Assembly: GCA_018825365.1 (NCBI GenBank)
Contig: JAHJEV010000001.1
Span: forward strand, 57,601-121,600
Direction of reading: 5' to 3'
DNA length: 64,000 nucleotides
Origin: Patescibacteria group bacterium
GTDB lineage: Bacteria > Patescibacteriota > WWE3 > UBA101185 > UBA10185
Each line of letters begins with the position of its first letter. The first letter of the stretch is position 1. The notes below the pieces were generated by a model. The model made no database searches and had not been told where the DNA came from. It saw only the letters and a list, made by a program, of their open reading frames with translations. Shown one piece after another: positions 5,002 to 63,895 of this stretch. Position numbers and translations under genes: made by a program.

Positions 5002-6882
5002 TTATTCTACAACCTCGCCCTCGACAGGCTCGTCTTTTTTGTCCTCTTTTGATTTGTCGTTTTTTTTCTCTTCCCCTGGTTTAGTTTCGTTTTGCTTGTA
5101 CATGTACTGACCAATCTTTTGCATTGACGTAGATAATTCCTCTGTTTTTTTCTTCAACTCTTCAGCAGAGGCTGTTTGTAGCGCATCTTTAATTTCTTTT
5201 ACTTTATCCTCGACCTCTTTTTTCACATCTGCAGGAACCTTATCACCGGCATCTTTAAGTGATTTTTCTGCGGTGTAGCAAAGACCGTCCGCAAGATTTC
5301 TTGCCTCTACTTCTTCTTTTCTTTTCTTGTCTTCCCCAGCGTGGGCCTCTGAGTCTTTAACCATTTTTTCAACCTCATCTTTTGAAAGTCCCGTTCCTCC
5401 TTGAATGGTTATTTTTTGTTCTTTTCCCGAGGCTTTATCCTTTGCAGTTGCATTTAAAATTCCGTTTGCATCAATATCAAATCTAACTTCTACTTGAGGG
5501 ATGCCTCTTGCGGCTGGTGGAATTCCATCCAATATAAATCTTCCTAGAGATTTGTTGTCCGAAGCCATTTCCCGTTCTCCCTGCAACACGTTGATTTCAA
5601 CGCTCGTTTGGTTGTCGGAAGCTGTTGAAAATACTTGGCTTGTCTGGGTCGGAATGGTAGTGTTTCTCTTAATAAGAGGCGTAGAGATCCCTCCCAATGT
5701 TTCAATTCCAAGTGTTAGCGGAGTTACATCTAAAAGCAAGACATCTTTAACGTCTCCTGCTAAAACTCCTCCCTGAATTGCGGCTCCAACAGCAACAACT
5801 TCATCAGGATTTATGCTTTTGTTTGGTTCCTTACCAAAAAACTCTTTGACGATCTGAACAACTTTGGGCATCCTGGTCATTCCGCCAACTAAAACTATCT
5901 CATCGATTTGCTCTTTCTTTAATCCCGAATCCTTCATAGCGTTTTCGATAGGTTGAATTGTTCTTTGAATTAAATCATCAACAAGTTGCTCAAGTTTTGA
6001 TCTGGTCAGCTTAACATCCAGATGTTTTGGTCCGGATTTATCAGCTGTAATAAAGGGAATGCTTATCTCCGTTTCCATTGTGGAGGAAAGTTCGATCTTT
6101 GCTTTTTCAGCAGCATCTTTCAGTCTTTGCATGGCCTGTCTGTCCGTCGATAAATTTACCCCAGTTTCCTTTTTGAACTCTTCCAAAAGCCAGCTAATGA
6201 CTTTCTGATCAAAATCATCTCCGCCAAGATAGGTATCTCCGTTTGTAGCTTTTACTTCAAACACCCCGTCTCCGATTTCAAGAACAGAGACATCAAAAGT
6301 TCCTCCGCCCAAATCGTAGATGATTATCTTTTCATTCTTCTTTTTATCAAGTCCATACGCAAGAGAAGAAGCTGTTGGTTCATTAATAATTCTTTTTACC
6401 TCAAACCCCGCTATCTTTCCTGCCTCCTGAGTAGCGGTTCTTTGTGAGTCGTTAAAGTATGCAGGGACGGTGATAATGGCATCTGTTATTTTTTGACCCA
6501 GAAAGCTTTCAGCATCGGCTTTCATTTTGGTAAGTATTTTTGCTGAGATCTCTTGAGGTGTATAAACTTTTCCTTCAACCTCAACACATGCAAGACCGTT
6601 TTGTCCTTCGACAATTTCGTACGGATAGTTCTTTTTAATCTTTTGAATTTCAGGGTCTGAGTACTTTCTTCCCATCAGCCTTTTTATCGAAAAGACAGTG
6701 TTTTTCGGGTTTACTACCTGTTGTCTTTTTGCAGGTACTCCGACAATATTCTGATCCGGAACTACAATTGATGGGGTAGTATTCCCGCCCTCTGCGCTGG
6801 GGATTACTTTGGTAGTCCCGCCCTCCATAACGGCCATGCAGCTGTTAGTTGTCCCTAAATCTATTCCTAGTATTTTTGACAT
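5002..6882 (-). CDS. dnaK: Chaperone DnaK (Hsp70)
   Basis: [18 protein letters not shown]..., DLGGGTFD, and a full Hsp70 architecture. Start moved to ATG at 6882, which has a perfect GGAGGA RBS. The longer track ORF would overlap grpE. Confidence 0.95.
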
Positions 6883-8143: not shown

Positions 8144-9925
8144 TTACTTTGTGAGTATTTGTCTGAAAGCTTCTTGAGGAATATCGACCTGGCCTATTTT
8201 TTTCATTCTAGCCTTGCCTTTTTTCTGAATATCTAAAAGCTTGTCTTTTCTTTCTCTGTGCCCCCCAGACATTTTTGCCAAAACATTTTTTCGTAGTGCT
8301 GGGATATCTTCTCTTGCAATTATTTTTCCGCCAACAGTGGCTTGAAGTGATACAACGAATTGCTGCTTTGGTATTACACCTTTTAGTTTTCTAATTAATG
8401 ACTTCCCAATTTCGTCGGCCCTTGCCCTTAAAACTATGTTTGAAAGCGGCTCGACCATTTTCCCGTGCACTAAAACATCAAGTTTTACCACGTCGACAGT
8501 TTGGTAATCTGAAAATTCATAATCAAGACTTGCGAATCCTGAGGATATCGTTTTTAGGTCATCAAAAAAGTTATAGATAAGCTCGGATAGAGGGAGTTCG
8601 TATTCAAACACCACGTTTTGTTCATTTGGGTACTCCATTTTTTTCAAAACTGCTCTCCTATCTTTACAAAGATTCATTATTGACCCTGAGTATGCAGCCG
8701 GGGTTATTATCGTACAAAAGATCCAAGGCTCTTGTATTTCAAGAATGCTTGATCTATCGGGAAGTTGAGACGGAGTCCTCACATATAGTAGTTCGTTTCT
8801 TGTATTTGTGACTTTGTACTCAACGGTTGGCGTGGTTGATATCAAATTTAAATCATATTCCCTCTCAAGCCTTTCTTGGATTATCTCGGCATGTAAAAGT
8901 CCTAAAAACCCGCATCTAAAGCCAAACCCTAGGGCTGAGCTACTTTCGGGTTCAAAACTCAAGGATGAGTCTGAAAGGAAAAGTTTTTCCAAGGCGTCTC
9001 TTAGCTGGTTTGATTTTGATGTATCAATCGGGTACATGGATACAAACACGAAAGGTTTGATTTCCTTGTAACCCGAGAGTGGTTTTGAAATGTCATCTTC
9101 CCAGCATACGGTGTCACCAACTTTTACTGCGTGTATGTCCTTAAATCCCGTTGCGATGTACCCGACCTCTCCTGTTTTGAGTTCGTTTGTTTTTACTCTT
9201 TTAAGTTTAAAGTACCCTGCTTCTTCTGGAGAGTAGATTTTTTTTGTTGCTAAGAATTTTATTTTTCTTTTGCCGTTAAGTATAAATTCACCATCAACGA
9301 CTCTTATTGTTGCAACAACCCCCAGGTACTCGTCATAAGATGAGTCAAATACCAAAGCTCTTGATGATGCGTTCTTATCACCTTGGGGATAGGGTACTTC
9401 CTTTATAATTTTTTCAAGCATGTCAGAAACTCCCTCTCCTGTTTTCGCGGATACTTTCAAGATGTCTTCTTTCTTAAACCCGAAAGTTTTAACCATATCG
9501 ATCTCAGTTTTTTCAATGTCTCCAATTCCCATATCAATTTTGTTTATAACGGGAATAATTTTTAAACCTGCTTCTTTTGCCTTGTAATAATTGGAAACCG
9601 TTTGTGCCTGGATACCCTGAGTTTTATCAACAAGCAATACTGCACCTTCGCATGCGGCCAGGGATCTGAAAACCTCGTACGTAAAATCAACATGTCCGGG
9701 AGTATCGATAAGATTTAGTTGATATCCCTTGTATTCCATTCTTATAGCCTTGAGTTTTATGGTTATTCCTTTTTCTCTTTCCAGATCCATTGAGTCTAGC
9801 GTTTGCTTTACGATGTCTCTTTGATCAATCGCGTGAGTTAACTCCAATAACCTATCCGCTAAGGTAGATTTACCGTGGTCTATATGGGCAATTATGCAAA
9901 AATTACGAATATGGTCCTGACTCAT
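8144..9925 (-). CDS. lepA: Elongation factor 4 (LepA)
   Basis: N-terminus IRNFCIIAHIDHGKSTLADRLLE, a G-domain, and a LepA C-terminal domain. 593 aa. Confidence 0.95.
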   Translation of the reverse strand: MSQDHIRNFCIIAHIDHGKSTLADRLLELTHAIDQRDIVKQTLDSMDLEREKGITIKLKAIRMEYKGYQLNLIDTPGHVDFTYEVFRSLAACEGAVLLVDKTQGIQAQTVSNYYKAKEAGLKIIPVINKIDMGIGDIEKTEIDMVKTFGFKKEDILKVSAKTGEGVSDMLEKIIKEVPYPQGDKNASSRALVFDSSYDEYLGVVATIRVVDGEFILNGKRKIKFLATKKIYSPEEAGYFKLKRVKTNELKTGEVGYIATGFKDIHAVKVGDTVCWEDDISKPLSGYKEIKPFVFVSMYPIDTSKSNQLRDALEKLFLSDSSLSFEPESSSALGFGFRCGFLGLLHAEIIQERLEREYDLNLISTTPTVEYKVTNTRNELLYVRTPSQLPDRSSILEIQEPWIFCTIITPAAYSGSIMNLCKDRRAVLKKMEYPNEQNVVFEYELPLSELIYNFFDDLKTISSGFASLDYEFSDYQTVDVVKLDVLVHGKMVEPLSNIVLRARADEIGKSLIRKLKGVIPKQQFVVSLQATVGGKIIAREDIPALRKNVLAKMSGGHRERKDKLLDIQKKGKARMKKIGQVDIPQEAFRQILTK

Positions 9926-11977: not shown

Positions 11978-12319
11978 ATGGCCAATACTAAGTCAGCTAA
12001 AAAAGCGGTTAGAAGCTCAGCAAGAAAAAGGTCCCACAATTTAATGTGGAAGACGAAATATAAGCAGCAGCTAAAAGCTGTTTATAAAGCTGTTGCCGGA
12101 AAAGAGACAGAGGAAGTGATTTTGGAAAAGTTTAAAGCCTTGCAAAAATCACTTGATAAAGCTGCTAAGGAAAAAGCTATTCATAAAAACAAGGCTGATA
12201 GAGTAAAATCAAACTATGCTAAAAGAATTGCTGCTCACCTTAAAGGAGAAGATAAAACTAAATCGGAAAAAATCGCAAAAACAAGACCCTCAAAACCAAG
12301 GTCAAAACGAAGCCTTTAA
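11978..12319 (+). CDS. rpsT: 30S ribosomal protein S20 with a basic C-terminal extension
   Basis: MANTKSAKKAVRSSARKR... is the canonical S20 N-terminus. The 113-aa length comes from a roughly 25-aa lysine/arginine/serine-rich tail. Confidence 0.85.
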   Translation: MANTKSAKKAVRSSARKRSHNLMWKTKYKQQLKAVYKAVAGKETEEVILEKFKALQKSLDKAAKEKAIHKNKADRVKSNYAKRIAAHLKGEDKTKSEKIAKTRPSKPRSKRSL

Positions 12320-12845
12320 AACCTTAGGCCTAAATCTTCTATCCAACTTCCAGCCGGTAGTCGCGCCATTCAAAAGACACGAAGACGCCGTTTTAATTTT
12401 TAGAAAAGTTATTATTATCCTTAGTTTTATTCTTGGGATCCTTATAGTTCTAAATTATCTACTCTTTCTCCGTATCGGTAGACTCAAGGTAGAACAAGAC
12501 AGACTTTCAAATAATGTACTGTCCGAACTTGCATCTGAAAAAACAGCTGTGAGCATAGACAGAAAAGTCACGTATTACAAAGAAATACTAAAGCTTAGAA
12601 AGCTTTTAGCTCCAAGAGTGTCTTTTGTTTTCGAAAATGTTATCGAGGGTATAAAGTTGGATGAACTTAGAATTACATTTCCAAGTTTTGAAATTACCGC
12701 AACGGCCAAAAATATTTATGACTTCACAAAACTGATCACGAATTACCTTAGTGGTGATTATGTTTCTGAAATAGTTTTAAAAAAAGCGAATTTTAACCCG
12801 CAGACAAAAGAGTATGAGTTTACTATTGGAGGCGTATTCAAATGA
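12216..12845 (+). CDS. PilN-like type IV pilus assembly protein (start uncertain)
   Basis: 'LGLNLLSNFQP' resembles the PilN N-terminal INLLP motif. It is followed by a single TM helix, a coiled-coil and an alpha/beta C-terminal domain. The ORF overlaps the rpsT 3' end in another frame, so the real start may be internal or non-ATG. Confidence 0.35.
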   Translation: MLKELLLTLKEKIKLNRKKSQKQDPQNQGQNEAFKTLGLNLLSNFQPVVAPFKRHEDAVLIFRKVIIILSFILGILIVLNYLLFLRIGRLKVEQDRLSNNVLSELASEKTAVSIDRKVTYYKEILKLRKLLAPRVSFVFENVIEGIKLDELRITFPSFEITATAKNIYDFTKLITNYLSGDYVSEIVLKKANFNPQTKEYEFTIGGVFK

Positions 12846-22409: not shown

Positions 22410-22799
22410 ATGAAGACATTTGAGAAGCTGAAAGGCAGGATAAACCAGATAATTTCCGACTTGCCGTGGTGGTGGGTACTGATTGCTGTGTCCCCCATAC
22501 TCGTTTTTATTCTTTTCACGGTTCTTGAGTCGCTGACGTATATAGATACACAACATATGGAAACCGTGAAACTTGAAAATAACGTAACGGTCGTATTTGA
22601 AGTAGACGGGAATGAATATCGAATATCTGGCGAAAACACCACTCCAGAGGGATGCATAGTAATTCCACTGGCGAAAAACCTGACCAACAGCGAAATAGGT
22701 TTTTTAAGCTGTGGTGGTCAAAGCCTTGGTACCCTTCAGTGTGTAGTTTACTGTACCATAACATCTAATAAAATTGTGCGAGTTGAACACCTGCCGTAA
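22410..22799 (+). CDS. Hypothetical membrane protein
   Basis: 129 aa. One TM helix (WWWVLIAVSPILVFILFTVL). Good RBS and a consensus promoter upstream. Confidence 0.4.
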   Translation: MKTFEKLKGRINQIISDLPWWWVLIAVSPILVFILFTVLESLTYIDTQHMETVKLENNVTVVFEVDGNEYRISGENTTPEGCIVIPLAKNLTNSEIGFLSCGGQSLGTLQCVVYCTITSNKIVRVEHLP

Positions 22800-24895: not shown

Positions 24896-25002
24896 CCACC
24901 TTGGTGGTGTGGGTTTTAGTTGGTACGTTTGTTGTAATAAAAATAAGGAGCCTAGTTTTTATAACCTAAGCTCCTAACATTTACTCTCTATAGCACGCGA
25001 CG

Positions 25003-27300
25003 TTATTCCGGGTTGATTGAAAAATTCTCGGCATCCGCGGCCTTGATTTGAAGCTGAAGTGCTTTGATCTCACCCTTGGTTGTCTTTAGCGTAATCACTC
25101 CGGCAACCTTAATCTTGTCCCGCCTCTCACCGTTGAGAAAGTCAAAAACATCCGAATCCAATTCGTCAAATGTCCAAACGTTAGTGTCGATACTCGGCAG
25201 GTCATAATCTGTGTCAAAAAAGTAAACCACGGGCAGATAGGGCTCCTCAGGATCCTGATCAGTGATTTCGATCAACACGCCCTGAACACCATCGCCGTGA
25301 ACATTTTTGATGTTGCGTGCGAGAACAACATCTTCCTCGACCTCGGTGTATTCGATGGCGTATTGCTCCGTATCTTTGGTATCAATTTCGACCTTTACCA
25401 ACTTTGCAGACCCGCCGTAGTCAACAATATCGACGAACCTTAGCGACTTGGTGGACCCCGGATCCTTCATCGCTTCGCACAAGTCTGTGTCTATTTCTGT
25501 GATATCCACTTCCTCGAACGACTCAGAAGATCTGCTTAAATCAACGGTTTCCCCATCGAAAAGGTACAATTGATCGGAGTACTCTTTATTCACAGGCTGT
25601 TTGGTAATCACAAGGACAAAGCCTTGGATATCATCACCATATTTTTCCTTCAGGACACGCTCGATCATAACACTATCATCAACTTCTTCTCCCTCGATAT
25701 CGAATATGTTGCACGCGTCGTCCGCGGTGATTTCAACCACCAGCAACCTGACTCCATCGCCCAGTGTTTCTACACCCACAATCTTGGCACGATTTTGATA
25801 GTCGGTTCCCATGAGGAATTCCTCAAGTGATGAGAATGTTCCATCCAGGCTTTGATCATCATGAGTGGAGTCGATATTTTCAAGACCACTTATGTCTTCT
25901 CCCTCGAATGGAAACACAAGATCGTTGTAGTCGATGTCTTTGGGCTGGTCTACGATCCTCACGTACACGCCCTGTACCTCATTTCCGTATTGCGCACGGA
26001 TTTTCCGCTCAATGATCTCGCTGTTTTCCAGCTCCTCGCCTTCAATACCGAAACGATCCGCGTCGTCAGCTCGGATATGGACTTCAAGCAGTTTTGAGAC
26101 ACCAAGGTATGTTATGATTTCTGCAAAAACCACCTCGGGCCGTTCCTGCTCACCACGGAAAATTTCTTCCAAGTCAGAATCCGACATGTTGTCGAGCTCG
26201 CGAATGTGAAATTCAGTACCTGAAGCTTCTAGGGCATCCAATGCCTGCACTGTCTCCTCATCGAAGGGATAGACTTCGTCTGGGTAGCAGTAGTTGTCAG
26301 GGACGTCAATGATTTTGACAACAAGTCCCCGAACTGACGAGTTCCTTGCTAAGATTTCTCGGACACGTTTTACAACGACCGCACTGGTCTCGACTTTCTC
26401 GTACGGAAGGTCATATTCCTCAGCCGCTTCTACATCTATTTCGATCTTCAGTAGCTGCACAACGTTTGCAAAGTTGACCAGTCCGACGATTTTCGACAGC
26501 GCCGGTGTATCTCCAGTGAGAAGAGCGTTTGTCAGTTCGTGAGGCATATCATCAAAGCTGCGGAGATTTCCAGGATCTTCAACTTTCCGAAGCCTGTCAT
26601 CGGTCTCCGTATTGAAGGTATAGATCTGCGGAAGATAGACCACAGTATCAGGAAAACCTGTTACAACAAGGACTACGCCCTGAGTCTGCGAACCATATTT
26701 CCTTCGCAGTTTTCGGGAAATGCGGGTAGCCTCGTCCTGGTATTCCGGCAAGATGTCAAAAAGTTCGGCATCTTTGGCCTTAATACGAATCTCCAGAAGC
26801 AAAAAATTACCAACTCGCGTAGTTCCAAAGTCCTGTGCGAGGGTTTCGCCCTGATTGATAACGGTTTCGTCCCGTCTTTCTAGCATAGCTGCTAGTTCCG
26901 GATTAAGATCGGCCATTCTTTCTACATCATACTCGGTGAATCCTCCTTGTAAGCCCGTAGACCTTGGTGTACCTCCAAAAAGGTAGATTCTCGAGCGGTA
27001 TGACTCGTCTTCAGGCACATCGGTAATCGTAACCAAAATGCCTTTTACAAAGTTGCCGTACTTAGATGTGATGGCAGATACCACTGTCGAGATACTCGCG
27101 AGATTGCTGCTAACCACCTTTTTAATGGCGAAAGCAAACAGTCTTGCTAACACAAACGCTGGAAACGCAAACAGCAAGAACAGCACAAGAAGGGTTTCAG
27201 CAGTTACCTTCACGATCTCCCTTCCCACTAAGAACGCCAGAAATGCGTACACTGTCAGTACCAGCGTTCCGACGACAAGTAAAGTACTAAGTTTCTTCAT
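25003..27300 (-). CDS. Membrane-anchored acidic tandem-repeat protein (6 x ~115-aa repeats), unknown function
   Basis: 765 aa. Two N-terminal TM helices. A repeated module appears at least five full times plus partial copies. Each module has a core 'LL.VEI.A.DAE.F.IEGEE...IERKIR..YG..VQGV.V.I.D.P...Y.D.VY.FD.E'. Coding GC is about 50% against a roughly 35% background. AAGGAG RBS. Confidence 0.6.
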   Translation of the reverse strand: MKKLSTLLVVGTLVLTVYAFLAFLVGREIVKVTAETLLVLFLLFAFPAFVLARLFAFAIKKVVSSNLASISTVVSAITSKYGNFVKGILVTITDVPEDESYRSRIYLFGGTPRSTGLQGGFTEYDVERMADLNPELAAMLERRDETVINQGETLAQDFGTTRVGNFLLLEIRIKAKDAELFDILPEYQDEATRISRKLRRKYGSQTQGVVLVVTGFPDTVVYLPQIYTFNTETDDRLRKVEDPGNLRSFDDMPHELTNALLTGDTPALSKIVGLVNFANVVQLLKIEIDVEAAEEYDLPYEKVETSAVVVKRVREILARNSSVRGLVVKIIDVPDNYCYPDEVYPFDEETVQALDALEASGTEFHIRELDNMSDSDLEEIFRGEQERPEVVFAEIITYLGVSKLLEVHIRADDADRFGIEGEELENSEIIERKIRAQYGNEVQGVYVRIVDQPKDIDYNDLVFPFEGEDISGLENIDSTHDDQSLDGTFSSLEEFLMGTDYQNRAKIVGVETLGDGVRLLVVEITADDACNIFDIEGEEVDDSVMIERVLKEKYGDDIQGFVLVITKQPVNKEYSDQLYLFDGETVDLSRSSESFEEVDITEIDTDLCEAMKDPGSTKSLRFVDIVDYGGSAKLVKVEIDTKDTEQYAIEYTEVEEDVVLARNIKNVHGDGVQGVLIEITDQDPEEPYLPVVYFFDTDYDLPSIDTNVWTFDELDSDVFDFLNGERRDKIKVAGVITLKTTKGEIKALQLQIKAADAENFSINPE

Positions 27301-27413
27301 GTCTCTCTCCTTTTATATGGGATATGTAAAAGAGACTCTACTACGGGTTAATTTGCTTGTCAAACCTGTTTTATATGGTTAAATTTGTAGCGGGGTATTT
27401 GTGAGCTTATAGT

Positions 27414-27442
27414 TTGACAAACAAACTGGCATATGTTATAAA
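27414..27442 (+). promoter_or_regulatory. Promoter of the nfeD-flotillin operon (TTGACA-N17-TATAAA)
   Basis: TTGACA 27414-27419, 17-nt spacer, TATAAA 27437-27442. A mirror-image TTGACA for the divergent gene sits at 27358-27363 on the minus strand. Confidence 0.45.
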
Positions 27443-27495
27443 TCACGTTAACAATAAGGGAGCAATCCCATACTCATGTAGAAAAGGAGAGAACT

Positions 27496-28062
27496 ATGAT
27501 ACTTTCGTGGATTTTTGCTGGACTGATGATCCTTGGAGGCAGCTTTTTTGTATTTAGCCTGCTCCTCGGAGGCGTTGGAGACTCGCTCGGGGATATGTTT
27601 CACGGGCTTGATTCAGCGCTTGAAAGCATCGGGCTTGACTTAATACCTGACAGTTTCGAACACGGCTCGGGAGGCGCCGGATGCATTACCATCCTGGCCT
27701 TCATCACTGGGTTCGGAGCTGCTGGCTTGGTGGCATCATTATTCGGCGCGAACGCTTTAATTTGCGTTTTGGCCGGGATTCTATTTGGTGTCATCGTCGG
27801 CGGAATTTACGCTGGGATCACTAAACTGATCATGAGTCAGCAATCAAATTCGTCAACTACCGATGCAGACATAGTCGGCAAGACAGCGCATATAACGGTC
27901 GAAATACCGAAAGGCGGTGTCGGACAAGTAATGCTGACTACCCAAGGCGGAACCCGCCCCTACCCGGCCTGTTGTGTAAATAACCAGGCGGTCGTGAGAG
28001 GGCAATCCGTAAAAGTCATCTCTGTGGAAGGAGGCAGGTTATACGTAGAAAAAGTTGAGTAA
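27496..28062 (+). CDS. nfeD: NfeD-like membrane protein (short form, C-terminal OB-fold)
   Basis: Glycine-rich TM helices. C-terminal 'KTAHITVEIPKGGVGQVMLT...GQSVKVISVEGGRLYVEKV' is a beta-barrel. Sits immediately upstream of an SPFH gene. Confidence 0.7.
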   Translation: MILSWIFAGLMILGGSFFVFSLLLGGVGDSLGDMFHGLDSALESIGLDLIPDSFEHGSGGAGCITILAFITGFGAAGLVASLFGANALICVLAGILFGVIVGGIYAGITKLIMSQQSNSSTTDADIVGKTAHITVEIPKGGVGQVMLTTQGGTRPYPACCVNNQAVVRGQSVKVISVEGGRLYVEKVE

Positions 28063-28118
28063 ACTTTTACCGTAAGCTACCTCAATCATATTCAACTCTA
28101 GATAAAGGAGAAGGTTCT

Positions 28119-29633
28119 ATGGATCTAACTGGATTACTTCCTACGATCGCATTGGTGGTAGGAATCATTGTCGTACTCCTGGTAGCGTTCTTTGCAATTT
28201 CCAGGGCTACGCGTCTCTATCACCGTGTACCTCCCAGCCAAGTGCTGGTTGTCTTCGGACGTGGTAAAACACAGTTCGATGCAGACGGAAAACAGGAAAA
28301 GACCGGCGTACGTTTCATCACCGGTGGTGGCGGCGTAGTGCTTCCAATTCTGGAAGAATGCACCACTATCGACCTGACCGTAATGACGATTACACAGAAC
28401 AAGGACCGAGTGTATTCGACCGACGGTGTTGCTGTCAACCTCGATTGGGTTGCACAGGTGAAGATAGCTGAAGATCAGCATTCACTCGCAACAGCCGCGC
28501 GTACTTTCCTGGGAAAAAGTACGAACCAAATTGTCCAGGTGATTACCGAAACCCTTTCGACGAACTTCCGGGCCATCGTGGGCCAGATGACTGTTGAAGG
28601 CGTGCATCGTGATCGCGATGCCTTCGTCCAGGCTGTCCAGAAATTGGCAGCGGATGAAATGACGGCCATGGGTGTGCGGATTATTTCCATGGGAGTCAAA
28701 GAGATCACCGATGACCTCGGTTACTTTGAAGCAATGGCTGCTCCGAAGATCGCTGAAGTGATGCGCGATGCCAAAATCGCTAAATCTTTGGCCGACCAAG
28801 CTGCCCGCGAACAAGAGGCAAAATCTATGTTGACCGCTCGTGAAGCTGAACTTCACACTGATGAAGTTATCGCTCAGAAAGAACGCGATGTTGAGCTTCA
28901 GAAGGTCGATAAGAATAAGCAGGTCGGTCTCGCCCAAGCAGACGCGGACAAAGAAGTGCAAACCAAAAAGGCTCTGGCCGTTGCACAACAACAGGAAGCC
29001 GAAGTACTGGTTCCTGCTCGCGCTGCCAAGGAAGCTGTCGAGATCAATGCGAATGCGGCAAGGTCGAAGACAGAAACAGAAGCTGACGCAAATGCCTATT
29101 CGAAGAAGACAGCAGCTCAGGCTGAAGCCCAAGCTGTAACACTCACCGGACAGGCTACAGCCGATGCCAATAAGGCAAAACTGTTTGCTGAAGCTGAAGG
29201 CACGAGGGCAAATCTTCTCGCTGAAGCCGAGGGCAAGCAGAAGATCGCTGAGGCCACCGCCGCCGAAGGTGAAGTTAACCTTCGTCAGTTTGTTGCGGCT
29301 GAGCTTATCAAAGCTCAGCAGGCAACTGGCATTGCTTTTGCTGCTGCCATGGGCCAGATTGGTGAAAACGTCAGGATCGTTCAGATTGGCGATATTCCAG
29401 CCGAAAAGAACGGACTTCTCGGTATACTGCAACAGGCCCCGCTCATTGCTGTTCAGCTCAACGAGCAAGTCAAGGCCCTCACCGGCGGTATGTCGATCGA
29501 ACAGGTTCTTACACAGGTTGCTGGTACTCTCAAACTGGCTGGGAAAACCCAAGCAGATGTTAAGACACCGAGTAGCAACGAAGAATCTGCCGCTGACATT
29601 TCTGGAAAGAAAGGTAAGAAGCTGACAAAGTAA
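28119..29633 (+). CDS. floT: Flotillin-like SPFH/band-7 protein
   Basis: N-terminal TM helix, an SPFH domain, then long Ala/Glu-rich coiled-coil with 'AEAEG' repeats typical of flotillins (FloT/YqiK). 504 aa. Confidence 0.8.
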   Translation: MDLTGLLPTIALVVGIIVVLLVAFFAISRATRLYHRVPPSQVLVVFGRGKTQFDADGKQEKTGVRFITGGGGVVLPILEECTTIDLTVMTITQNKDRVYSTDGVAVNLDWVAQVKIAEDQHSLATAARTFLGKSTNQIVQVITETLSTNFRAIVGQMTVEGVHRDRDAFVQAVQKLAADEMTAMGVRIISMGVKEITDDLGYFEAMAAPKIAEVMRDAKIAKSLADQAAREQEAKSMLTAREAELHTDEVIAQKERDVELQKVDKNKQVGLAQADADKEVQTKKALAVAQQQEAEVLVPARAAKEAVEINANAARSKTETEADANAYSKKTAAQAEAQAVTLTGQATADANKAKLFAEAEGTRANLLAEAEGKQKIAEATAAEGEVNLRQFVAAELIKAQQATGIAFAAAMGQIGENVRIVQIGDIPAEKNGLLGILQQAPLIAVQLNEQVKALTGGMSIEQVLTQVAGTLKLAGKTQADVKTPSSNEESAADISGKKGKKLTK

Positions 29634-29653
29634 AATAACATTGTAACCCTCGC

Positions 29654-29700
29654 TACGAGGATAGAGTTTCACAAAATTCTATCCTCGCTTTTTTATCCCT
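29654..29700 (+). terminator. Rho-independent terminator after flotillin
   Basis: GAGGATAG-(14 nt)-CTATCCTC followed by GCTTTTTTA. There is an additional short CCTCG/CGAGG stem just upstream. Confidence 0.5.
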
Positions 29701-29957: not shown

Positions 29958-30728
29958 ATGTACGAGCCGATAAAATCATTGGGCCAGAACTTTTTGGTAG
30001 ACAAACAGTTAGCAAGAGATATGGTGAGCGCGTTGGATATTGCAAATGGGGATATCATTGTTGAAATAGGGCCTGGACTTGGGTCATTAACTGAAATTCT
30101 TGCAGAAAGTATTAGTGGAACCAATAGCGAGTTGAATGCTGTTGAGGTGGACGAGAGGTTTTTTGGAAAACTAGTTTCAATGTACGCGGATGAGCAAAAC
30201 ATTAAAATTATCAATGCGGATATTTTGGAATGGCTTCCTAATTTTGAGTCACCGCACGATTTTAAAATAATAGGGTCGCTGCCTTATTACATTACTTCTC
30301 CAATTATTCATTCAATTATCAAAATGAAAAAAAGACCAGCTGTGTGTGTTTTATTGGTGCAAAAAGAGGTTGCCGGGAAGATAAAAAGTCCCGCTCCCGA
30401 TTCTTCTTATATGTCTTGTTTTATACAGACATTTTTTGATGTTTCTTATATCGGTAAGGTGCCTAAAAACAGATTTAGACCTGAGCCGGAAGTTGACGGG
30501 GGGATTTTGAAATTTGTTAGAAAAGAGGGGGATTTTTCGCCTGAATTTATCGTCAAATATGAAGCGTTTCTTCACAAAGCTTTCTCAAATCCAAGGAAAA
30601 TGCTAAATAAAATGTTCACAAAAGAGGAATTGGAAAAAGGAGGGATTGACCCCACACTGCGAGCTCAGAATCTTAATTCTTCTCAATGGCTTGAGTTTTA
30701 TAAAGTTTTAAATCAAGGAAATTCATGA
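29958..30728 (+). CDS. rsmA: 16S rRNA (adenine1518/1519-N6)-dimethyltransferase
   Basis: 'LGQNFLVD' and 'VEIGPGLGSLT' are KsgA/RsmA hallmarks. 256 aa. Confidence 0.9.
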   Translation: MYEPIKSLGQNFLVDKQLARDMVSALDIANGDIIVEIGPGLGSLTEILAESISGTNSELNAVEVDERFFGKLVSMYADEQNIKIINADILEWLPNFESPHDFKIIGSLPYYITSPIIHSIIKMKKRPAVCVLLVQKEVAGKIKSPAPDSSYMSCFIQTFFDVSYIGKVPKNRFRPEPEVDGGILKFVRKEGDFSPEFIVKYEAFLHKAFSNPRKMLNKMFTKEELEKGGIDPTLRAQNLNSSQWLEFYKVLNQGNS

Positions 30729-41138: not shown

Positions 41139-41474
41139 TTATCCAAGTAGATACTTGAAGTAGAGTTGCCAGTCGTTCCGCGATGGGTCTACAATTCCTA
41201 GCAACACAGCACCCTTTTGCTTCAGGTTGGCATATATACGTGAGAAACTACCTAGGCTGAAATCCCCGCTTGCGATCAAAACGGCCTGTTCCTTCTTGGG
41301 GAATTTTCTCTTAGCCAGTTCGCTGAAACCACTTGGGTCGAAAACGTTGATCACCTGCGAGCCATTGGTGGGTTGTTCTTTCTCGACCGTACTCACTTTG
41401 AGTTGTTCGAGGACCGCTCTGACCTGCGGTTCTGCGTCTTTATCGAGAAACAACCTTACTACTACGGTACTCAT
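41139..41474 (-). CDS. Hypothetical protein (GC-rich orphan)
   Basis: 111-aa ORF with about 50% GC. No recognisable motif. Confidence 0.3.
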   Translation of the reverse strand: MSTVVVRLFLDKDAEPQVRAVLEQLKVSTVEKEQPTNGSQVINVFDPSGFSELAKRKFPKKEQAVLIASGDFSLGSFSRIYANLKQKGAVLLGIVDPSRNDWQLYFKYLLG

Positions 41475-55893: not shown

Positions 55894-57030
55894 TTAGTTT
55901 TGAGCAGTTTCCTTCTTTTGCATTTCCTCCCATTTTTCTCTTACAAAGTTTTCAAACTCAGTTTTAAATCTCTCTTTCGAGAACTTTTGAGCATATTCTT
56001 TTATTTTTCCATGATCAAATTCCCTATTTTTAATAGCTTTATCAAATTCGACAAGTTTTTCTGATAGGGAATCAACTGTTTCCTCATCGAAAAACATTCC
56101 GGTTTCGTTTTCAATTATCGTTTCCAAATGACCGCCGGATCTGTGAGCAAGTACCGGTTTTCCATGTGCCATTGCTTCAACCGGAACTATTCCAAAATCC
56201 TCATCCGTAACCGGGTTTATGAGTCCCGCAGAATCTTCTAATATTTGATGCTTTTCTTCTTCTGATACCTTTCCCTTAAAGACTATATTTTCTTTTGCTA
56301 TGTCCTTGAGGTGAACCTCTTCTAATCCCGTTCCTATAATAACCAGAGGGAATCGGATGTTATTAAAGGTTTCTACGAGAAGGTCAAAGTTTTTGTATTT
56401 TGATAATCTCCCAACCGCTACGAAGTATGGAACAACTGCCTTTTTTAAACCGTCTTTGGAATTGAAGGAAAAATCAACTGGGGGATGAATAACTTTTGCG
56501 TCTCTACCATAAAATTTGTGAATTCTTTTTCTTGTGGTCTCAGAGTTAGTGATTATAAAGTCAGGTCTTTGTGCAGCAACGTAATCCCAGATTCTAATAA
56601 AGTTTACAAGATAGCTGTAAAAGGGCTTAAAGAATGGTTTTTCCCATTTGGTGGATTCTTGAGAGTATTTGTATAAAAATCTCGGGGGAGTGTGAATATA
56701 AGAAATATGTAGTTGATCTGGTCTCGTGAGTATCCCTTTGTTCCAGGTTGTTCCGTCTGAGATTACAATATCGTATTTTCTGAAATCAAAGCTTTCGAAT
56801 ATTGTTGGCATTGAGAATAGGAAACAAAGCTTTGAGGATAACTTATGAATCAAGCCTTTAGGATAAATAATTTCTTTACCGTTAATATACTTCGACATGT
56901 CATTCGATTTGTATTTGGCGGTGTATATGGGTGAGTCGGGAAATATCTCAGATATTGCCTCAAGGGTTTTTTCTGCCCCTCCGTATTGAACTAAAAACTC
57001 ATGGGCAAGCGCTACTTTGGGTTGTTTCAT
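55894..57030 (-). CDS. GT-B fold glycosyltransferase (GT4-like)
   Basis: C-terminal 'EDFGIVPVEAMAHGKPVLA...SGG' is the E-X7-E-type motif. Confidence 0.8.
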   Translation of the reverse strand: MKQPKVALAHEFLVQYGGAEKTLEAISEIFPDSPIYTAKYKSNDMSKYINGKEIIYPKGLIHKLSSKLCFLFSMPTIFESFDFRKYDIVISDGTTWNKGILTRPDQLHISYIHTPPRFLYKYSQESTKWEKPFFKPFYSYLVNFIRIWDYVAAQRPDFIITNSETTRKRIHKFYGRDAKVIHPPVDFSFNSKDGLKKAVVPYFVAVGRLSKYKNFDLLVETFNNIRFPLVIIGTGLEEVHLKDIAKENIVFKGKVSEEEKHQILEDSAGLINPVTDEDFGIVPVEAMAHGKPVLAHRSGGHLETIIENETGMFFDEETVDSLSEKLVEFDKAIKNREFDHGKIKEYAQKFSKERFKTEFENFVREKWEEMQKKETAQN

Positions 57031-62067: not shown

Positions 62068-62221
62068 TTTAATGCTGAAGTACTATTCAGCTCTTGTACA
62101 TTGAAAATTTCCTTTGAGATTTTGAGTTTTCAAGATCATTAAGGCGAAAAGAACGGGTGCTTTGATGAATATCCCCTAACGCATTTGTGGATATTCATTA
62201 AAAGTAATTTAGCTTTTTATT

Positions 62222-63895
<1,674 letters not shown>

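Follow-up and report, generated by a model that had tools for sequence, protein, structure and literature searches.

Here we report that the intergenic region separating an orphan repeat-protein gene from an nfeD-flotillin unit in a Patescibacteria genome is probably a conserved bidirectional control region, built from two back-to-back housekeeping-type (sigma-70-like) promoters, with no need for a factor that binds its palindrome. The region lies in a 64-kb stretch of DNA that was analyzed as a whole and is called the window below. Its two -35 boxes form a mirror image, from which the first-pass annotation had suggested that the genes on either side are co-regulated, possibly by one dimeric factor sitting on the inverted repeat. 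The promoters recur in related loci and the extended repeat does not, and the mirror repeat is probably not the binding site of a shared regulator.

Results

Two opposed predicted promoters occupy the intergenic spacer

Positions 27301-27495 form a 195-bp spacer, as read from the sequence, between the divergent repeat-protein gene (25003-27300, minus strand; 765 aa) and the nfeD-like gene (27496-28062, plus strand; 188 aa). A flotillin/SPFH gene (28119-29633, plus strand; 504 aa) follows nfeD, and an intrinsic terminator, consisting of a 14-pair hairpin and then a T-run (29656-29695, plus strand), ends the nfeD-flotillin unit. The repeat-gene promoter has a -35 box TTGACA (27358-27363, read from 27363 to 27358 on the minus strand), a 17-nt spacer and a -10 box TAGAGT (27335-27340, read from 27340 to 27335), and a consensus promoter scan lists it at 10/12. 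Directly 5' of its -10 box is a CCCGTAG element (27341-27347, minus strand) that is conserved in five upstream regions. The nfeD promoter on the plus strand has TTGACA (27414-27419), 17 nt and TATAAA (27437-27442). This promoter is absent from the scanner's list because TATAAA does not carry the highly conserved T at position 6 and so departs from the form TAnnnT, to which TAGAGT on the minus strand and the orthologous boxes TAGGAT and TATATT conform. A TGT triplet stands immediately 5' of TATAAA, producing an extended -10 element of the TGn type (27434-27442), which would compensate for the missing T. All of the 9-mers, hexamers, 17-nt spacings and the spacer length given by the first-pass annotation are found at the coordinates it reported.

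Both genes carry the same Shine-Dalgarno (SD) stretch, AAAAGGAGAGA, placed 3 nt from each ATG, which bears out another of the first-pass observations. It occupies 27304-27314 on the minus strand for the repeat gene (ATG at 27300-27298) and 27482-27492 on the plus strand for nfeD (ATG at 27496). The GGAG core ends 6 nt 5' of both ATGs, and AAAGGAG pairs with the 16S rRNA tail, CCTCCTTTCT. Both sites are purine-rich, complementary to the 16S 3' tail and within 5-9 nt of the start codon, as canonical SD sites are. Because the 16S 3' end is the canonical CCTCCTTTCT, AAAGGAG is simply the complement of that tail; the full AAAAGGAGAGA also recurs 5' of repeat-gene homologues elsewhere. Each leader additionally contains the motif ATCCCATA (27316-27323, minus strand, for the repeat gene; 27465-27472, plus strand, for nfeD), which was detected with a repeat finder and by anchored comparison. 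The leaders are unstructured, with folding z-scores of -1.4 to +1.0 against shuffles, and no Rfam family matched them. We therefore rejected a riboswitch or attenuator, there being no Rfam match and folding no better than that of shuffles. We also rejected a small open reading frame, since the spacer holds merely spurious frames of 28-51 aa that overlap the signals. Read on the plus strand, the left arm of the mirror repeat also gives TTGTCA-17-TAAATT (27357-27385; 9/12), a reading that arises because this arm is nearly palindromic. By sequence, this could be a weak additional nfeD promoter, whose leader would measure about 110 nt; it is not conserved in the orthologous module described below.

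The promoter pair is conserved in distant relatives

We compared the window with three related loci, designated L001, L022 and L024, the last of which contains two paralogues, for a total of five repeat-gene and three nfeD/SPFH upstream regions. Two of these loci (L001 and L022) provided other divergent spacers, both from distant relatives (no more than 36% protein identity). L001 is from a Candidatus Moranbacteria metagenome-assembled genome (MAG) and is the sole orthologous module, with flotillin (71% identity) and NfeD (57%) genes on one strand and the repeat gene (36%) diverging from them across a 199-bp spacer (5117-5315). Its chromosomal context is unlike that of the window, and its block is likewise rich in GC at third codon positions (GC3) and SD-bearing. 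In L022, an SPFH gene is head-to-head with the repeat gene with 223 bp between them; there is no NfeD gene, and the SPFH protein belongs to another subfamily with no significant BLAST similarity to the window flotillin. In L024, a UPF0182 gene is followed by two repeat-gene paralogues in tandem. When genomes and metagenomes were scanned with NfeD for more orthologous spacers, only the Moranbacteria locus and the Anaerolineales locus came up again, and no divergent repeat gene accompanies the Anaerolineae nfeD-flotillin loci.

This comparison upholds the first-pass assignment of divergent promoters, since L001 and L022 each have a sigma-70-type pair and SD sites in corresponding places. For the L001 spacer, the scanner independently lists TGGACA-17-TAAAAT together with a TG-bearing TTGACA-17-TAGGAT; for L022 it lists TTGACT-17-TATATT, which also has the TG. 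The -35/-10 spacer is 17 nt in all eight aligned promoters, including both in the window, and the TTG of the -35 box is kept in seven of the eight. Matches to TTGACA are six of six on both strands here and range from 3/6 to 6/6 at the same place in the relatives. At the repeat gene, the orthologous positions of the -35 box read TGGACA, TTGCTT, TTGCTA and TTGCAA, and the -10 counterparts in the four other loci are TAAAAT, TAGAAT, TACTAT and TAACAT. At nfeD/SPFH, the -35 box is TTGACA in L001 and TTGACT in L022, and the extended -10 counterparts are TGT-TAGGAT and TGA-TATATT, respectively.

These alignments give a distinct pattern for each side of the spacer. The repeat-gene promoters (five loci) consist of TTGnnA and TAnnAT separated by 17 nt whose 3' end is CC-GT(A/T)G; the leader measures 34-46 nt, and its SD, AAAAGGAGA(G/A)A, stands precisely 3 nt before the ATG in the window, in L022 and in the first L024 paralogue. 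The repeat-gene SD is conserved in both L022 and L024. In the nfeD/SPFH promoters (three loci), TTGAC(A/T) and TAnnnn are likewise separated by 17 nt, here with TGn at the 3' end, and the leader measures 42-60 nt; the counterpart of the nfeD SD in L001 is AAAAGGAGAGG. A further motif, CCCA(T/A)A, precedes the A-rich SD by about 1-10 nt in leaders of either side (repeat gene and nfeD/SPFH), 6 of 8 in total. In an unbiased k-mer search of the five repeat-gene upstream regions, conservation was highest for two blocks, the SD and, around the -10 box, CCCGTAGTAG (k = 10; reached by 0/300 shuffles). The second of these blocks corresponds to CC-GT(A/T)G, which stands 5' of the repeat-gene -10 box in all five regions: window 27341-27347 (minus strand), L001 5257-5263, L022 1013-1019, and L024 4002-4008 and 6418-6424. 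This element is outside the standard sigma-70 consensus, and it may be the real regulatory site.

At the other end of the operon, the outer stem of the flotillin terminator, CGAGGATA/TATCCTCG, and its T6 are identical in L001 (2891-2922, minus strand), where the flotillins are 71% identical. The similarity ends right past the T-run, which places a module boundary there.

The mirror repeat exceeds chance and is absent from the related loci

In the window, TTGTCAAAC lies at 27357-27365 and its reverse complement, GTTTGACAA, at 27412-27420. The inverted repeat is longer than first reported, with 14 nt of which 13 are complementary, GTTTGACAA[A/G]CAAA, comprising a left arm TTTGCTTGTCAAAC (27352-27365) and a right arm GTTTGACAAACAAA (27412-27425). 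The right arm contains a perfect 11-bp palindrome of 5-1-5 form, GTTTG-A-CAAAC, and the left copy agrees at 10 of 11 positions. The arms are 46 nt apart, with their centres separated by 57-60 bp.

The 9-mer alone is not enriched in the 64-kb window (2 found versus 1.13 expected). A 14-nt inverted repeat with one mismatch or fewer arose in 3 of 1000 dinucleotide shuffles of the spacer, and in 94 of 20000 trials with both TTGACA hexamers held fixed (p ~0.005). Because the window holds about eight divergent spacers, the corrected significance of the symmetry is modest (p ~0.04). The likeness extends beyond the arms: with the -35, -10 and SD cores held in place, 9 of 2000 shuffles reach the resemblance seen between the two promoter-leader halves, and these halves share three blocks in the same order, namely the 14-nt -35 block, ATCCCATA (8/8) and AAAAGGAGAGA-N3-ATG. 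From the shuffle results and the shared, ordered blocks, we therefore conclude that the symmetry is real.

The first-pass annotation had suggested looking for the palindrome at homologous loci and had taken its absence there as a refutation, which is the outcome obtained here. The extended repeat is absent from L001 and L022, and no match to the 14-mer was found in any related locus. The best inverted repeat in the L001 and L022 spacers is an opposed SD pair rather than -35 arms. Over 20 positions flanking the -35 boxes, 9 are identical in the window compared with 7 in L001 and 8 in L022, and the gap between the two boxes is 50 bp in the window and 35 and 84 bp in the two relatives. The L001 halves are no more alike than chance (1279/2000 shuffles versus 9/2000 in the window). 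The L001 spacer has its own 14-nt mirrored SD flanks, CAAAGA[T/A]AAGGAGA (2/300 shuffles), where those of the window are TA[T/G]AAAAGGAGAGA. This difference suggests concerted evolution of the two leaders inside each genome.

The proposal of a single dimeric factor on the inverted repeat fails on the distance between the arms, on their absence from the relatives, on the want of a regulator gene and on the finding of no further sites in the window. The half-sites of one dimer are usually about 0-12 bp apart, and 46 nt is too far. Across the four genomic contexts of the repeat-gene family, the module neither contains nor directly adjoins a gene for a DNA-binding protein, and a regulon search found both the 14-mer and the 11-bp palindrome at chance level across the 64 kb. 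The first-pass interpretation is therefore supported in part: the head-to-head SPFH arrangement in three genomes favors a functional link with nfeD-flotillin, and the shared regulator is not supported.

Alternative explanations of the symmetry

A variant of the regulator idea would treat each arm as the operator of a lineage-specific transcription factor (candidate site GTTTGACAARCAAA), with a dimer on each arm or a looping tetramer blocking both promoters and thereby co-repressing both units. Such an operator is conceivable, at low probability, because the 5-1-5 palindrome of each arm overlaps a -35 box. The arm match does exceed chance with the hexamers fixed (94/20000), the palindrome is perfect in the right arm and 10/11 in the left, and the 57 bp between centres is about 5.4 helical turns. 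L022 also contains an exact 11-nt direct repeat, CTTTGTTAAAA, at 941-951 and 1001-1011, 60 nt apart. However, these 11-mers are only loosely like the window arms, differing at 3 of 11 positions, and sit otherwise relative to the promoters, so that their significance is doubtful. Moreover, neither L001 nor L022 conserves the arms, sites elsewhere in the 64 kb are no more frequent than expected, and no locus has a regulator gene in or beside the module. Part of the arm palindrome also comes free, because TTGACAA is inherently self-complementary (TTG-A-CAA). We consider operators of this kind rather unlikely. Taken together, the sequence comparisons indicate that the mirror match is not a conserved operator, and a lineage-specific function of the extended match (p ~0.005) is possible.

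The symmetry might instead be a fossil of copying, left by an inverted duplication or by gene conversion between the halves and without function in itself. The three shared blocks in one order and the likeness of the halves beyond core-preserving shuffles (9/2000) speak for such an event, as do the mirrored SD flanks of L001 (14 nt; 2/300 shuffles), which look like homogenization within a genome. Yet CCCA(T/A)A and the long SD are family-wide leader features in other genomes and can be explained without copying; between the shared blocks, the halves cannot be aligned, and the leaders differ by 19 nt. We regard copying as plausible but unlikely, though slightly less so than operators. Simple coincidence, meaning that two good -35 boxes have similar flanks by chance in AT-rich DNA and that the first-pass annotation singled out the most conspicuous example from 64 kb, has in its favor the non-significant 9-mer count, the similar flank identities of the relatives (7/20 and 8/20 versus 9/20 here) and the correction for about eight divergent spacers (p ~0.04). 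It accounts poorly for the contiguous run, in which 7 of 8 hexamer-adjacent positions match (94/20000), and for the further shared blocks that follow in the same order, and appears very improbable. A pair of conserved divergent promoters, with the extended match as a local feature of this lineage, is the explanation that we favor.

The repeat gene is paired with SPFH genes in three genomes

The 765-aa repeat protein is composed of two N-terminal transmembrane helices followed by six acidic units of about 117 aa, and has no Pfam match and no known fold match. A word-indexed search of 5.8 billion proteins returned the protein itself and one homologue with 36% identity. A full HMM scan of 1.84 billion representatives, run with a repeat-unit profile, brought in another three full-length members, giving a five-member family with relatives of the repeat gene in three other genomes. 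We rejected a phage or plasmid origin, since tblastn found no match for the repeat protein in phages or plasmids, and likewise rejected a defence system, since no module protein matched in PADLOC. A 129-aa SD-led open reading frame at 22410-22799 was considered as a homologue of the 128-aa gene 3' of the L001 repeat gene and discarded, as there is no similarity.

The partner proteins are recognizable. The flotillin has a Band_7 match (6.4e-27) spanning residues 36-223, a hydrophobic N-terminus visible in the translation, and its nearest named relatives in Anaerolineae (Chloroflexota), at 50-53% identity. The gene directly upstream, in the same orientation, matches the Pfam NfeD C-terminal domain at 19.1 bits, below the cut-off of 29.1; its product is 57% identical to the L001 NfeD, and the L001 and Anaerolineales homologues have a weak precomputed NfeD match. 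At the locus of the nearest named flotillin relative, from Anaerolineales (L006, 2108-7518), the nfeD-flotillin pair is preceded by genes for an ECF sigma factor and a LiaF-like protein and by two genes without annotation (180 and 341 aa), an arrangement reminiscent of the envelope-stress control known from B. subtilis.

The repeat gene is head-to-head with an SPFH-family gene in three genomes, and these SPFH genes belong to two unrelated subfamilies. That the repeat gene recurs opposite two non-orthologous SPFH genes favors a functional link of its product with nfeD-flotillin and is the strongest evidence for such a link. Tentatively, and with considerable doubt, the repeat protein could be a new SPFH/flotillin scaffold partner in Patescibacteria, with a hairpin membrane anchor and six acidic domains of undescribed fold, served by a dedicated, conserved promoter class TTGnnA-N10-CCnGTAG-TAnnAT; the module would then be regulated at the invariant CCnGTAG rather than at the mirrored -35 boxes.

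The module differs from its host in gene-start architecture and composition

The host is a Patescibacteria (CPR) MAG with about 38-39% GC. Its 16S rRNA gene (62216-63895) contains a group I intron near the 3' end (63588-63842, 55 bits), and the canonical anti-SD CCTCCTTTCT forms the end of the 3' exon (~63886-63895). A TAnAAT box ends 3-12 nt, mostly 6 nt, 5' of the start codon in 19 of 55 genes, compared with 3.5% of random positions; examples are the genes at 8144-9925 (minus), 12216-12845 (plus), 29958-30728 (plus) and 55894-57030 (minus). TGn is frequent in these leaderless-type promoters and they have no -35 consensus, and an SD core occurs in merely 11 of the 55 window genes. From the placement of TAnAAT, the TGn and the missing -35 consensus, the host seems to use mostly leaderless mRNAs transcribed from -10-only promoters.

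Against this background, the three-gene block of repeat gene, nfeD and flotillin stands out with its leaders, strong SD sites, perfect -35 boxes and high GC. Its GC content is 47-52% and its GC3 about 0.50, versus about 0.35 for the host, with all codon classes shifted. A GC3 offset of about +0.15 over neighboring housekeeping genes recurs in four diverged genomes, where the GC3-rich repeat-gene/SPFH block spans approximately 24900-29700 in the window, 2853-8158 in L001, 1-3331 in L022 and 967-8807 in L024. The topA gene neighbors the block in three of the four genomes, and chromosomal contexts differ otherwise. There is no tRNA gene in the window and no integrase or transposase among the annotated neighbors. 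Because the offset recurs in four diverged genomes, a simple recent horizontal transfer of a GC island is weakened as an explanation. The differing contexts and the Chloroflexota affinity of the flotillin would suit horizontal acquisition, yet the recurring offset and the topA neighbor make ancient vertical descent with a lasting bias just as good a fit. Classical expression-linked codon bias is weakened too, because the L001 ribosomal and translation-factor genes rpsB and tsf are host-like in GC3 and have no SD. The only other window gene with a strong SD (AAAGGAGG) and high GC3 (0.545) is a 111-aa open reading frame at 41139-41474 (minus strand), which has no Pfam match.

Discussion

We propose that the spacer works as two promoters set back to back. 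On the minus strand, TTGACA-17-TAGAGT would initiate transcription at about 27327 to give a leader of about 27 nt. On the plus strand, TTGACA-14-TGT-TATAAA would initiate at about 27449 to give a leader of about 46 nt. Each transcript would thus begin with a short, unstructured leader that ends in an optimally spaced, extended SD (AAAAGGAGAGA-N3-ATG) able to pair with the 16S tail. Since both units have what look like strong constitutive signals of one class, co-expression of the repeat protein with NfeD-flotillin is probable, and as divergent neighbors they may also be coupled through supercoiling. This model assumes that the host RNA polymerase uses TTGACA efficiently, the host's own promoters having no -35 consensus. 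The 14-nt mirror match would be specific to this lineage and most likely a local by-product, resulting either from copying of an inverted half or from the drift of both boxes to one optimum. The mirrored boxes add little, because the pair consists of ordinary divergent promoters.

To our knowledge, the promoter and translation signals of uncultured Patescibacteria are almost unstudied. Within one genome, the window presents two architectures: leaderless genes with a -10 box alone, and a module that has leaders, SD sites and -35 boxes. The head-to-head SPFH pairing provides a first functional lead for an orphan repeat protein that has no known fold match, and also a lead for flotillin biology in organisms with minimal membranes.

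The organization of the module can be compared with that of known flotillin loci. The location of nfeD directly upstream of a co-oriented SPFH/flotillin gene is near-universal (PMC11222466), and FloA and FloT of B. subtilis are under the control of the ECF sigma factor sigma-W (PMC8581546). As in the Firmicutes nfeD-flotillin (floA/floT) operons, a gene for a putative membrane NfeD protein precedes the flotillin gene in the window, and a terminator lies 3' of the flotillin gene; the divergent orphan repeat protein is not described in those operons. We rejected a sigma-W/ECF promoter of the B. subtilis type, as there is no consistent match: the best agreement with TGAAAC-N15-17-CGTA in the compared loci is 6-7 of 10 positions, inconsistently placed.

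The nfeD promoter resembles extended -10 promoters in the TGT before its -10 box, the TG being kept in L001 and L022, and many host promoters also have TGn. Extended -10 promoters need no -35 box, whereas the nfeD promoter has a perfect one as well. With the classical palindromic operators of divergent genes, the spacer shares inverted symmetry and arms that overlap the -35 boxes. It differs from them in that its arms are 46 nt apart instead of 0-10 nt, are not conserved and have no cognate regulator gene. The closest likeness is to bacterial divergent sigma-70 pairs, which also have opposed -35/-10 promoters with 17-nt spacers in an intergenic region of about 200 bp and a leader and SD for each gene, and in which the RNA polymerase footprints do not collide (50 bp separate the -35 boxes here). 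Unlike such pairs, the spacer contains no intervening regulator site that is conserved across its relatives. The promoter pair is also atypical for its own genome, because the other host promoters are -10-only and leaderless. The window pair is best filed as a fresh instance of ordinary divergent housekeeping-type promoters.
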